In this document: one piece after another, positions 34,825 to 55,310 of the stretch
How the letters are laid out: the number at the start of each line of letters is the position of its first letter
Numbering within the stretch: position 1 is the stretch's first letter
Origin: Balanoglossus misakiensis
Taxonomy: Eukaryota; Animalia; Hemichordata
DNA length: 64,000 nt
Reading direction: 5' to 3'
Assembly (NCBI GenBank): GCA_040954595.2
Contig: CM082579.2
Location: 8,979,625-9,043,624 of the forward strand
Notes under the pieces: generated by a model
Told to the model about the DNA's origin: nothing
Databases searched by the model: none
Seen by the model: the letters and a program-made list of their open reading frames with translations, nothing else
Position numbers and translations under genes: made by a program

Positions 34825-37800
34825 TTAGGGTTCCTCGGCCACCTCCTCCAGGTCGACCAGTGTGCTGCGCTGATTGACGAACAAGAAATCGCTCCTGGAC
34901 TTCAGGCGCCCCGACGAAACGTCGAACGTGAACTTGCGCTCGCCCCGAAGGAACGACGAAGACACGACGACGTTGAAGTCGGTCGGGCAAGGCTGCACCT
35001 TTCCGATGCTGCAGCCGGTGCGGACTTGATCCACGCTCTTTATCATGTTGAAGAATGTCCGGTTGTTGGCGTCGTGCACTTCGAAGTCGTACGGCTTGGG
35101 CAGCTCCCTCTCGGCGTTGACCACGGGCTTGTTGAAGTTCACCCGGAGCGTGAAGTTGCCGCGATTCACCCCTTCTGCGTCGTTGGTCAAGAGCGACGAG
35201 GCGTCGACAACCTCAACGGTGAACGTCGGCTGCAGGTAGATGTGCTGCTCCACGAACGACTCACCGCCTAACTCGTCCTCATCTACGCTCACAATCTGTT
35301 GGTAGTAAAAAAGTAGTGATCGGATCTCTGGATGAAAAATTACTATCGCCTGATGTCACTTTGCCTAATATTTTACTGTCGTGCCTGTTCGTAAGCTCAT
35401 ATATCTCACATACGCACACAACATTTATACAGATCCTGAACTCACAGCCGCCTTTCAAACTGAGAAATGTTTGATTAGTTGTGACATGCTTTGAACTTTC
35501 GCGTGTTTTTAATAATAAACGAGGTTAGGGAACCGTTTTTCGTGCGGGGTGATTTTACTTCTGTGCTTTTAAATGTCGGTAGTTTGCAACACACACAATT
35601 CAAATGACGTACGGCTTTACTGTAGCAATCACCATGACATCTTCAAGTGGTTGCACCCCCCCCCCCTCACACACACACACACTCCGCCCGCCTAGCTGCA
35701 ACCCTGGAATTTTTGCCACGCGGAGATTTCCCACCAACCAGTTGGGGCTGCGGAGAGGTACAGGGTAAGAGCTTGGTGGATATGTGACCAACGATGAACT
35801 GTTTCAAAACCACGTCTGTTTGACGTCACTTTACTCACCTGGTGGGACAGGTCCAGTCGGATGACGTCGCCGTCCTGCATTTTGTGCTGGAACAACACTT
35901 TGAGCTGATACTCTGTCAGCTGACGTCCTCCAAAAACAAAGTACTGCTTAATCGGCGAGTACACCTTGGCCAATCCCCGTGTCAGCTTGATTCGAAAGTC
36001 ACTACTGAGCAGATCTCGAGCATCATAGCCCGGTAAGGAACCAACGGTTGGCGACTGTGAACAGACAGTTAGGAATATCAAGAACTCAGTGGAAAACCGG
36101 TCAAATGCAAATGTACTAAACATTTTACATTTCATCTGAATTTGATAATCGACTGGAAGGTTACGGACAGGTGCTTGCATGATGCGTAATTGCTCAGCGC
36201 GTTGAGAGAGAAAAAAACCCAGACAAATGATCACATCCAAATTCAAGTCGATTTTATCACGACCGTTATGGTTGATATTTCACAGTTTTCATAAGTCTAG
36301 CGCCTTCACGCAGCCATCGTGAATTTGAACTCAAAGCGGAAAGTTGACCACACCGCTTTGAGTTAAAATTCATGGTGGCTGTGTGAGGGCGCTAGACTTA
36401 TAAAAATGGTGTACATGTACAATGTATTACTATTATTACCTCATCTTCTACTGTGTCGGGCACAGGGTACTTCCTTCGGACCGGTCGTGTAAACGTCACC
36501 GTCACTGACAGGCTCTTGCCGTCCTCCAGCGCCTGGAAATCGACTCTCTCCAGACCGGACAGAGGGGGGCGGCTTGGCTGGGGAATCAGGCCACGTACGT
36601 CCGCTTTGTTGATGGTCCAGGTGAAAACGGAGCCGGTTTCGGTGTCGTAGGTCTTCGGTTTGACGTGAACGTTCGACCTGTCAATGCACTTCCACCAACA
36701 CCACCACCACCACCCATAGCACCAGAATGACCTATACGTCCTTGAGTCCTCTATAATAGCAAATTTTTGAAGAACGTTGTGTTTGAGACCACCTTGTTCA
36801 AACGAACAAAAAAAGAACCTCTGATACTTCTGACGTCGAAGTCAATGTGGGAACATTACAGTTTCAGCTGATAACATTGCGAACAAATACTAATATAAAT
36901 ATCACACATGGTCTTCTGTTCATTGTAGAAGATTTCGCGAGATTTGGTTAGTTACACTACCAACGGGTTGCCAGGCAAATAATACAATTCAAGCTTTAAA
37001 TGAAATTAGAATAGGCAGAGGGTTTAACAAGCATTGTAACTTTTGGGCCGTTTAACTCGATGCCGGCCATGTGTTGTTTGTCCTTTGTCACATTAGAATG
37101 TCCTCCCACATAAACTGCCTCGCCACGCGAGATCTCGCAGGATCTCGTGGAGTTCGGAAAATGGTCTATTCTTTAATATCAATCACGTGATCTGGCCACC
37201 GAAGTTCCGTTACCGAATTTTGGCAATGACGTCAATATTAGGGTTTTGGGACGCCCACGGGTATACAGCACTCAAAAAAAAAAAAAAAAAAAAAAAAACC
37301 ACGGTGTGTCTGTACATAGCACTTACCGCCTGGAACACTGAGGTAATACGGCAGAGGCTGCATCAACAATTTGCTGGTGGGCCCCTTCGATCTATCGCTG
37401 ATGGGGAGTTCAGCTAGCATAATGTCGTCCCCGTACTTGACGGGCATCCCGTTCGGCTTGTAGTCATTGACTAGTTGGAATCTCAGGTGGTCCTTGTCGT
37501 ACAGATCGCCAGAAACAACTTCGTATCCGTGTATATTTCTTCTCGACACCACCCCATTCGAAGACGCCAGTATCAGCGGGTCGCCGTAAGCAAGTGGTTC
37601 CTTTTTGACATTATTTATCGACAGTGGCGACAGTAGGGAGAACATCTTCCTTTGCTCGCCTATAAGATGGGGAATTTTACAATATGAATTAATGAGAATT
37701 AAATATAAGTATTAAAACCCACAGCTGTGAACGTATCCTAGGCATTCATTAAGGCTCACTTATTTGTTCGCAGGGACAGATAGTAAATACGTAATTGGTG

Positions 37801-55310: not shown

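Follow-up and report, generated by a model that had tools for sequence, protein, structure and literature searches.

The window, that is the whole 64,000-nt stretch of DNA that was analysed, carries on its minus strand a gene of 30 exons that runs from an ATG at 55310 to a TAA ending at 34825, as checked by script; all coordinates below refer to this strand. The 29 introns are all of the GT-AG type, measure 142-1305 nt (median 383) and are in phase 1 (17 introns), phase 0 (seven) or phase 2 (five). The spliced CDS of 6,981 nt is free of internal stops and encodes a protein of 2,326 aa; the in-frame splicing of 30 exons proposed in the first-pass annotation thus holds, while the length given there, about 2,370 aa, was some 2% too long. 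The exons were picked by hand among splice-site candidates with frame-keeping as the criterion, and agreement of phases alone is therefore not independent evidence. An independent test is provided by the Ptychodera flava protein XP_070539755.1 (2,321 aa), in which 1,564 of 2,314 aligned residues are identical, with 11 gaps of at most 4 residues each, and which matches all 30 exons at 51-85% identity per exon. We regard the gene as confirmed by this sequence comparison. The acceptor of exon 17 was set at 43677 because this restores a Cys that is kept in all four orthologues. The GC content, computed before a 9-nt shift of one acceptor, is 0.54 in exons (GC3 0.67) and 0.41 in introns, and the first candidate polyadenylation signal 3' of the stop is ATTAAA at 34463..34468. 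An extra exon near 54306-54466 was dropped, as the frame works without it and P. flava has no counterpart, and an exon 21 acceptor at 41972 was rejected on grounds of phase and of the P. flava match.

Four public proteins of 2,313-2,343 aa, all annotated 'uncharacterized' (P. flava XP_070539755.1, Glandiceps talaboti LOC144434246 and LOC144446518, and Saccoglossus kowalevskii LOC100370048), differ from the window protein by divergence at the species level; they are collinear orthologues at 67.6, 54.5, 54.3 and 51.7% identity and represent Ptychoderidae, Spengelidae and Harrimaniidae, with one or two copies per species among the sequences found. As P. flava is the closest relative, the host is probably a ptychoderid acorn worm. 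Since the collinearity runs from end to end with 52-68% identity, we take the locus to be a single gene, as first proposed, and the proposed order of the modules recurs in the enteropneust orthologues. That two or more adjacent genes have been fused by gene predictors and by the earlier reading is very improbable. P. flava XP_070566443.1 (1,075 aa) does correspond to the C-terminal half only, but it starts inside a TSP1 repeat and lacks a hydrophobic start; moreover, the four single chains come from three genera, no intron exceeds 1,305 nt, a signal-like segment occurs only once, and Capsaspora CAOG_06312 likewise has DNRLRE-like, TSP1, helix and MACPF segments in one chain.

Accessory modules and the candidate cleavage site

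The modules were assigned mainly from a Pfam scan of 29 of the 30 window exons and of five hemichordate proteins. Exon 1 (55052..55310; 66% identity to P. flava) begins with the ATG and a signal-peptide-like hydrophobic start, called from hydropathy only, and is Cys-rich, as is exon 2 (53642..53746; 79% to P. flava), which appears EGF-like by eye; neither exon has a Pfam match, and the two EGF modules described earlier found no library match in profile searches. Two fibronectin type III domains follow in exons 3 (52942..53265; fn3 31.9 bits) and 4 (52268..52564; 49.3 bits), then a kringle in exon 5 (51652..51939; 49 bits) and a 48-nt linker exon 6 (50796..50843; 60% identity to P. flava, 17% to Saccoglossus). 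Exons 7 (50572-50350) and 8 (49711-49437) form the first extended PAN module (49437..50572), which is recognised by HHalign and by PAN_1 in orthologues. It is homologous to the PAN inserted in the trefoil further downstream (HHalign 92%, E 6e-7). PAN_1 stays below cut-off on exon 25 (20 bits), and two PAN stretches pass in Saccoglossus and in one Glandiceps orthologue. Exons 9 (49053-48836), 10 (48632-48491) and 11 (47794-47591) encode a conserved region and a Cys-containing segment (47591..49053) with 48-67% identity to the orthologues. The former had been called PLAT-like, a label that found no Pfam match for aa ~608-700 in any of the five members and no PDB match under E 0.38.

The C-type lectin domain in exons 12 (46935-46641) and 13 (46465-46386), spanning 46386..46935, passes Lectin_C narrowly (23.9 bits, cut-off 22.6) and is missed by Pfam in three of the four orthologues. 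Its GEPN is kept in all five sequences (EPN at 46678-46667), and F-D-D stands at the position of the canonical W-N-D. EPN is generally associated with microbial sugars of the mannose type. Exons 14 (45751-45420) and 15 (45099-44958), at 44958..45751, are assigned indirectly, from sequence profiles, as a DNRLRE/CBM96-like domain. The region (aa ~921-1077) has no direct DNRLRE or CBM96 profile match; it matches a Capsaspora region with a profile score of 34.6 versus at most 14.6 in 20 shuffles, and this counterpart reaches 22.3 bits with NCBIfam DNRLRE_dom, below the cut-off of 34. An Atlas search pointed, as a lead only, to a cluster in which 25% of the members have CBM96 (score 0.88). When exon 14 was used in a word-based search, none of the 38 candidates was recovered although orthologues exist, which marks the limit of its sensitivity. 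ADAMTS-type TSP1 repeats lie within 42721..44393, in exon 16 (44393-44210), which passes TSP1_ADAMTS, exon 17 (43677-43498), which has no match and was assigned by eye, and exons 18 (43276-43187) and 19 (42821-42721), both below cut-off, with a weak third repeat. Of the modules listed in the first-pass annotation, FN3 x2, kringle, two PAN, C-type lectin, TSP1, long helix, MACPF and trefoil are recovered, the helix and the trefoil in a paralogue model; the DNRLRE-like module is assigned indirectly, and the EGF pair, the PLAT-like and the Ig-like modules are without library match.

The absence of a transmembrane segment, also proposed earlier, is borne out by the highest 19-residue hydropathy past residue 30, which is 1.55 in the window protein. 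The highest internal value is 1.31-1.76 in five full-length sequences, well below the 2.65-3.31 of four bivalve relatives.

Between the conserved region and the lectin lies RRRR (aa 787-790; 47604..47615), a candidate proprotein-convertase site. Orthologue alignment places a dibasic site in the same linker in all five sequences, as RRRR in the window, RERR in P. flava and KR in the other three. R-X-K/R-R, a search pattern written after the sites had been seen, fits two of the five, the remaining three having K-R alone. In Capsaspora CAOG_06312, as in one unnamed protein, polybasic sites precede the DNRLRE-TSP1-helix-MACPF block too. Pfam found no protease domain in any of the five sequences, and the processing module formerly claimed is for this reason at most a cleavage site.

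The MACPF domain and the C-terminal tail

The fold was examined in a model of the paralogue P0001, which has 51% identity to the window protein and a mean pLDDT of 74, the PAN insert and the aromatic loop being under 50-60. Exon 20 and the start of exon 21 (42309..42478; 81% identity to P. flava) encode a long helix ahead of the MACPF domain, which corresponds to residues 22-107 of the P0001 model (about 85 residues) and agrees with the coiled coil that had been described here. A two-copy complex prediction for helix and MACPF scored 0.00 with the alignment not used, a value that speaks neither for nor against assembly.

The MACPF domain, with two candidate membrane hairpins, occupies exons 21 (42000-41211) and 22 (41068-40797), at 40797..42000, and scores 61.1 and 29.9 bits on these exons (Pfam cut-off 21.5; orthologues 87-100 bits). 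It includes YLGRGYD at 41865-41845 and FGTHY-x6-GG at 41346-41308; the signature Y/W/F-G-T/S-H-F/Y-x6-GG is found in six of six hemichordate sequences. The domain is the best-kept segment, with 83% identity to P. flava compared with 68% overall. It starts near residue 1,365; the more than 1,300 residues ahead of it could hinder ring formation, a point that counts against a pore former.

In all six sequences, hydrophobic residues alternate with polar ones along the four candidate membrane strands, which lack Pro and carry 0-2 charges each. The alternation sums of 2.9-3.4 were reached by none of 5,000 within-strand shuffles, a result that is optimistic because the strand limits were placed by eye. 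The hairpins stood out in this strand-wise test; they did not when even/odd hydropathy was taken over an entire hairpin, nor in a sliding beta-moment.

The P0001 model is predicted to have the MACPF fold with a bent central sheet and helical CH1/CH2. Its best solved relative is TgPLP1, by sequence (E 5.7e-19) as well as by fold (Foldseek E 1e-18; Z 26.5, rmsd 2.7, 256 aligned), followed by MPEG1 and perforin (Z 20-21.5). Astrotactin-2 fits more poorly than the lytic members (Z 12.1-12.3).

Exons 23 (40451-40247), 24 (39194-39027), 25 (38613-38474), 26 (38327-38210) and 27 (37659-37327) encode a trefoil with the second PAN (37327..40451). The P0001 model (range 456-805) aligns to Pmt4-MIR with VIA-align Z 15.6 and rmsd 3.4 over 165 residues, and MIR/RyR/IP3R types (Z 14-15.8) rank above ricin-type lectins (Z about 12). 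The model thus agrees with the beta-trefoil with inserted PAN proposed earlier, and the predicted type is a split beta-trefoil of MIR/RyR rather than ricin kind, interrupted by the second PAN. The QxW motif of ricin-B lectin trefoils is absent from the window tail, and one sequence of seven has one, within the PAN insert; since QxW is missing, sugar binding by the trefoil is not supported.

A Cys-bounded Trp-rich loop in exon 28 (36750-36440), aa 2005-2016 at 36686..36721, is a candidate membrane anchor. It has seven aromatic residues in the window and 2-5 in four relatives, is absent from one Glandiceps isoform, and varies more than any other part of the tail (29-61% identity). In the window and P. 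flava the loop is richer in Trp than in the other enteropneust orthologues, whose second PAN carries an additional aromatic-basic segment. The end of exon 28 with exons 29 (36054-35839) and 30 (35295-34825, with the TAA), at 34825..36054, encodes two modules predicted as all-beta in the P0001 model, where fold searches covered residues up to about 810. These modules, labelled Ig-like before, have no Pfam match; exon 30 gave no match to PDB sequences up to E 10, and the P0001 tail yielded no usable match in an Atlas search.

Relatives and known MACPF systems

In an IQ-TREE analysis the MACPF domain groups with bivalve, Capsaspora and amoebozoan proteins (support 99.1/100, 20 of 36 rows); the trees, a quick tree and this smaller run, are unrooted and leave out named perforin, MPEG1, C6-C9, apextrin and PLP. 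Its members include proteins of Clydonella and further protists. Of 25 non-hemichordate clade members that were not part of the profile, 15 have trefoil blade motifs; among 140 other proteins there was one such case. In Capsaspora CAOG_06312 one chain holds, in the order of the window protein, DNRLRE-like, TSP1, helix, MACPF and PAN segments, and in the clade relatives, as in the window protein, a helix-rich segment precedes MACPF. The N-terminal modules differ, with LRR in CAOG_06312, EGF in a protist set and none in CAOG_03644. The bivalve members (~900-1,130 aa) have a C-terminal hydrophobic segment in four of four tested, whereas the window protein lacks a TM segment. By description, not by alignment, they resemble in length and layout CgMACPF-7, a Vibrio-induced oyster MACPF protein (1,129 aa) that has a signal peptide and a TM (PMC13090629). 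These sequence relations suggest an old, apparently undescribed MACPF subfamily that is also present in bivalves, Capsaspora and an amoeba. A literature search on the same architecture and the orthologue locus names, from which subscription journals were largely missing and in which supplementary MACPF gene tables were outside scope, found no paper. Within that search the architecture is without a described example, as had been stated; it is at the same time shared by orthologues of full length from three families of enteropneusts and, in part, by the wider subfamily.

TgPLP1 (PDB 5oup) and apicomplexan PLPs (PMC6294395) resemble the window protein in the YLGxGYD..GNP..DPG start, in large flanking regions and in an aromatic loop in the tail, TgPLP1 being anchored through a tryptophan-tipped loop. 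Identity is about 22-25%. The TgPLP1 tail is an APC-beta prism (three four-Cys repeats in the same source), whereas the window tail is a predicted split beta-trefoil; APC-beta found no match in sequence and fold searches in which the tail modules were not folded separately. The N-terminal half of the window protein consists of animal extracellular modules, unlike that of apicomplexan PLPs.

Complement C6-C9 are secreted, as is likely for the window protein, and like it have TSP1 repeats ahead of MACPF (fold Z 16-18); they are defined by LDLa, CCP and FIMAC with a TSP1-LDLa-MACPF-EGF core (PMC11312191). None of LDLa, CCP and FIMAC has a Pfam match in the 29 window exons or the hemichordate proteins, and the window protein differs by a long helix between TSP1 and MACPF, a trefoil after MACPF and more than twice the length. 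Apextrin is, as predicted for the window protein, a secreted MACPF protein of marine invertebrates, and it has a putative glycan-binding tail (PMC8361754). Its MACPF directly follows the signal peptide, in contrast to the deep position here, and ApeC has no Pfam match on the 29 window exons or five hemichordate proteins. The TgPLP1-like character of the MACPF domain, part of the earlier apextrin/PLP reading of the motif, is supported by sequence and fold. MPEG1 / perforin-2 shares the MACPF fold (Z 20.3-21.5 against the P0001 model). It has a C-terminal TM anchor, which the window protein lacks, and a P2 beta-prism after MACPF, where the window domain matches beta-trefoils (Z about 15), the last 260 residues being barely covered. 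C2, which in perforin-1 follows MACPF-EGF, has no Pfam match, the tail modules not having been folded separately. By these features of sequence and model the protein does not fit apextrin, C6-C9 or MPEG1, the last on account of the missing TM anchor.

Proposed function

Overall, we favour, with a probability of roughly 0.55, a likely secreted and likely dibasically cut, self-targeting defence protein that forms pores of beta-barrel type and is predicted to bind glycans and to act against microbes or parasites. Counting against this reading are the three sites with K-R alone, the F-D-D of the lectin, the variability of the aromatic loop and the absence of QxW. The signal peptide would direct secretion, and a furin-like convertase may cut at aa 787-790, leaving the Cys-rich, FN3 x2, kringle and PAN modules on an N-terminal fragment and everything from the lectin through the DNRLRE-like, TSP1, helix and MACPF segments to the tail on the other. 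Target capture could then fall to the C-type lectin and the DNRLRE-like domain, with the TSP1 repeats and the long helix spacing them from the pore domain, and the trefoil-PAN unit with the Cys-bounded aromatic loop would dock on the bilayer, comparable to the TgPLP1 tryptophan loop. Finally, rings would assemble and CH1/CH2 unfurl, as in the general MACPF mechanism.

A non-lytic or only locally pore-forming matrix or developmental protein, in which the adhesion-type modules do the work and MACPF polymerises or anchors, is a less probable reading that deserves consideration. Such roles are known among MACPF proteins for apextrin, a secreted protein of the larval matrix (PMC8361754), and for torso-like and astrotactin (PMC6294395). 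Modules such as FN3, kringle, PAN and TSP1 are typical of matrix and signalling proteins. The layout is nearly indel-free across three families, with one or two copies among the sequences of each species, a stability beyond that of many immune genes in invertebrates. On the other hand, the strict alternation of the hairpin strands in six of six sequences, the MACPF domain being the most conserved segment, the poorer fit of astrotactin-2 to the P0001 model and the relatives in unicellular Capsaspora and an amoebozoan argue against this role.

The combination of lectin and MACPF in one chain, the lack of a TM segment and the aromatic loop would also suit a toxin or deterrent that forms pores and acts from mucus or eggs on animal predators or parasites, like the apple-snail egg toxin PmPV2. 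In PmPV2 a lectin delivers the MACPF chain, and the protein is reportedly a MACPF toxin against predators (bioRxiv 10.1101/2019.12.23.880021). We consider this rather improbable, as the evolution is slow and collinear, the copy number is low among the sequences found, and EPN is usually tied to mannose-type microbial sugars.

Mosaic proteins are common in marine invertebrates. A more speculative and rather doubtful extension of the pore-former reading is that the gene is the animal form of a pre-animal chassis (helix, MACPF and PAN-split MIR-type trefoil), found in amoebae, Capsaspora, bivalves and acorn worms, to which each lineage has added its own recognition modules, so that the acorn-worm chain would be a one-protein counterpart of the complement path from lectin to MAC, in a deuterostome lineage from which C6-C9 have not been reported. 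If true, a single chain would combine recognition by a lectin, a switch thrown by proteolysis and the attack on the membrane. The split MIR-type trefoil with PAN tail was not found described for a MACPF protein in the literature searched. In a complement survey (PMC11312191), C3 and MASP are reported from hemichordates and C6-C9-like proteins only from vertebrates, cephalochordates and urochordates. The gene may be a conserved and specific candidate for membrane attack in deuterostomes without reported C6-C9, and it outlines a subfamily that extends to an amoebozoan and to unicellular relatives of animals. The orthologue sequences are already public, albeit nameless.

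Gene model and orthologues

The gene lies on the minus strand at 34825-55310 and comprises 30 exons, hand-picked from splice-site candidates and checked by script, which is the count given in the first-pass annotation. All 29 introns are GT-AG (142-1,305 nt), and the reading frame runs from an ATG at 55310 to a TAA at 34825 without internal stops, a frame check that is not independent since the exons were selected to keep frame. The 6,981 nt encode 2,326 residues, and the ~2,370 aa proposed earlier was thus about 2% too long. GC is 0.54 in exons (0.67 at third positions) versus 0.41 in introns. 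Because an acceptor-like sequence within 55311-55340 (minus strand) ends 15 nt 5' of the ATG, a non-coding 5' exon may lie upstream, giving 31 exons in total.

Exon 21 as query retrieved a Ptychodera flava protein of 1,075 aa (XP_070566443.1), which covers only the C-terminal half and starts within a TSP1 repeat, and an exhaustive search with this protein led to a second P. flava record, XP_070539755.1, of 2,321 aa. When residues 436-1700 of the latter were searched against 7,972 candidates of 1,276-4,062 aa, five passed. Apart from XP_070539755.1 these were proteins of 2,343 and 2,329 aa from Glandiceps talaboti and of 2,313 aa from Saccoglossus kowalevskii, and a TSP1-rich protein that is unrelated. 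The four enteropneust proteins, from three different enteropneust families and all named "uncharacterized" in the database, are 67.6, 54.5, 54.3 and 51.7% identical to the window protein over the whole length; the alignment with XP_070539755.1 has 11 gaps, each of at most 4 residues, and 51-85% identity in every exon. A fused gene prediction is very unlikely from these comparisons, because the four records are collinear single chains, and the single gene originally proposed is upheld. Judged by its closest relative, that of P. flava, the window most likely stems from a ptychoderid acorn worm. The shorter P. flava record represents a second paralogue, and its public model, beginning inside the repeat, is probably 5'-truncated; Glandiceps likewise has two loci.

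Domain anatomy and the MACPF family

A Pfam scan of all window exons save exon 6, which is too short, matched two FN3 domains, kringle, C-type lectin, ADAMTS-type TSP1 and MACPF, and two PAN stretches were matched in each of two orthologues. Exons 7-8 and exons 24-26 each encode a PAN-containing module, and the two are mutually related (HHalign 92%, E 6e-7). These parts of the first-pass domain list are supported by Pfam, whereas its EGF, PLAT-like and Ig-like regions had no library match. The DNRLRE-like region has matches in the equivalent stretch of two other proteins, one from Capsaspora and one unnamed (34.6 versus ≤14.6 in 20 shuffles), the NCBIfam DNRLRE_dom match of the Capsaspora counterpart is under the cut-off, and an Atlas lead (0.88 to cluster) has CBM96 on 25% of cluster members, which together point indirectly to a DNRLRE-like domain. 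By hydropathy, no internal segment of the window protein is hydrophobic enough for a TM, in line with the absence of a TM noted initially.

The structural model was obtained for the paralogue XP_070566443.1 from a 54-sequence alignment (mean pLDDT 74), and presents a helix of ~85 residues, then MACPF, then a beta-trefoil. The best solved match of its MACPF domain is Toxoplasma PLP1 (Z 26.5, rmsd 2.7, 256 aligned). Owing to the second PAN module inserted in it, the trefoil extends across model residues 456-809, which agrees with the earlier reading of a trefoil with an inserted PAN. It is closer to Pmt4-MIR (Z 15.6, rmsd 3.4, 165 aligned) and RyR2 (Z 15.8) than to ricin-type lectins (Z ~12), and the tail of the window protein has no QxW motif.

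By profile, signature and fold, the last from the paralogue model, the window protein is a member of the MACPF superfamily. Unlike C6-C9 it has no LDLa, a defining feature of these proteins (PMC11312191), and unlike MPEG1 no TM; no match to the tail domains of PLP and perforin-1 was found, though by fold either may still be present. The ApeC that defines apextrin is not present. An apextrin-like matrix or developmental role (PMC8361754) is the main alternative reading and is regarded as unlikely. No published description of the architecture or its locus names was found in literature searches of mostly open-access main texts, in keeping with the initial failure to recognise it.

The exhaustive search with the 1,075-aa protein gave 1,218 proteins at E ≤0.001; among the best 150 listed, the top non-hemichordate matches were two Capsaspora owczarzaki proteins, unnamed proteins of environmental origin, bivalve proteins of 700-1,130 aa and proteins of protist transcriptomes, one of them labelled Clydonella, an amoebozoan. 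The Capsaspora proteins CAOG_06312 and CAOG_03644 aligned to residues 938-1901 and 1293-2092 of the gene model, respectively. From 189 proteins, 169 had a long MACPF match, 55 were chosen for a quick tree and 36 for an LG+F+G4 tree, and in both the proteins from hemichordates, bivalves, Capsaspora and protists fall into a single group (31/55 rows, SH-aLRT 99; 20/36 rows, 99.1/100). Since the trees are unrooted, all rows come from searches with this MACPF family, named reference families are not among them and most matches were never named, the nearest named relative and presence in echinoderms or chordates lie outside what the trees show. Trefoil blade profiles match 15 of 25 non-hemichordate members outside the profile, short or truncated ones included, versus 1 of 140 other proteins, and the N-terminal modules vary, with CAOG_06312 carrying LRR and the protist set EGF. 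An unnamed protein of 1,069 aa (P0150), in which five C-type lectin domains come after MACPF, falls outside the hemichordate-bivalve-Capsaspora clade and is a separate lectin-MACPF fusion.

Functional signs and proposed mode of action

The best-kept segments relative to P. flava are MACPF (83%) and the helix (81%), against 68% for the whole protein, and the MACPF signature is found in 6/6 hemichordate sequences. Four candidate membrane strands, placed by eye, exhibit hydrophobic/polar alternation in all six, exceeding 5,000 shuffles each; a cruder alternation test did not single them out. All five full-length sequences have a dibasic site in the same variable linker: RRRR in the window protein and RERR in P. 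flava, with KR in the other three. In CAOG_06312 and one unnamed relative, polybasic sites lie ahead of the equivalent block. Of the "processing" module suggested earlier the site is retained, but no protease domain was found. In the bivalve members P0002, P0031, P0030 and P0023 a polybasic site stands directly after MACPF, not before; no such site was seen in two Mytilus proteins. The lectin motif GEPN is kept in 5/5, with FDD or LDD where the C-type lectin motif WND is expected. In 5/6 sequences the trefoil is succeeded by an aromatic loop bounded by Cys, with 7 aromatic residues in the window protein. PMC6294395 describes membrane anchoring of TgPLP1 via a tryptophan-tipped loop, and a beta-barrel ring as the general MACPF mechanism.

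Our preferred reading, with a probability of roughly 55%, is a secreted pro-protein; after secretion, we infer, it would be cut at the dibasic site, capture glycans by its lectin and DNRLRE-like domains, dock via the trefoil-PAN unit together with the aromatic loop, and assemble into a beta-barrel ring as in other MACPF proteins. Oyster CgMACPF-7, a protein of 1,129 aa with signal peptide and TM whose expression rises on repeated challenge with Vibrio (PMC13090629), is similar in size and layout to the bivalve members, an analogy that may lend slight backing to this reading. A toxin directed at predators appears improbable, more so than the matrix or developmental role, and further roles take the remaining share. 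Overall, what the first-pass annotation observed (gene, core domains) stands, and its interpretation as a lytic effector is partly supported.

Neighbouring genes and repeats

Pentraxin domains are encoded by four exons of the gene at 10505-20676 (minus strand), which also has a Thr-rich tract of ~440 residues and is a second mosaic gene, possibly immune. At 484-1047 (plus strand) an LDL-receptor class B repeat is encoded by an exon that belongs to an LRP-like gene, and an exon-like ORF of 124 aa at 62639-63013 (minus strand) has no Pfam match. Two related tRNA-Ala(AGC) arrays of the same orientation flank the MACPF gene, at 33332-33995 (2 genes) and 59588-60628 (4 genes); their flanks match too (82.8% over 559 nt), and they may be a split or duplicated tRNA cluster. 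Three tRNA-Gly(GCC) genes lie at 9349-9419, 24316-24386 and 25120-25190, two in inverted orientation.

Palindromic MITE-like elements occur in introns and upstream, at 51019-51393, 44845-44931, 39891-40151, 36281-36411, 49754-49871, 39261-39413 with 47881-47981, and 58729-59372; one has 318-nt arms of 99% complementarity. The 3' part of exon 2 recurs together with its donor site as an inverted copy in intron 13 (45955-46050; 90.7% over 97 nt against 53705-53609), next to a (CATA)n/(CA)n tract that is long.
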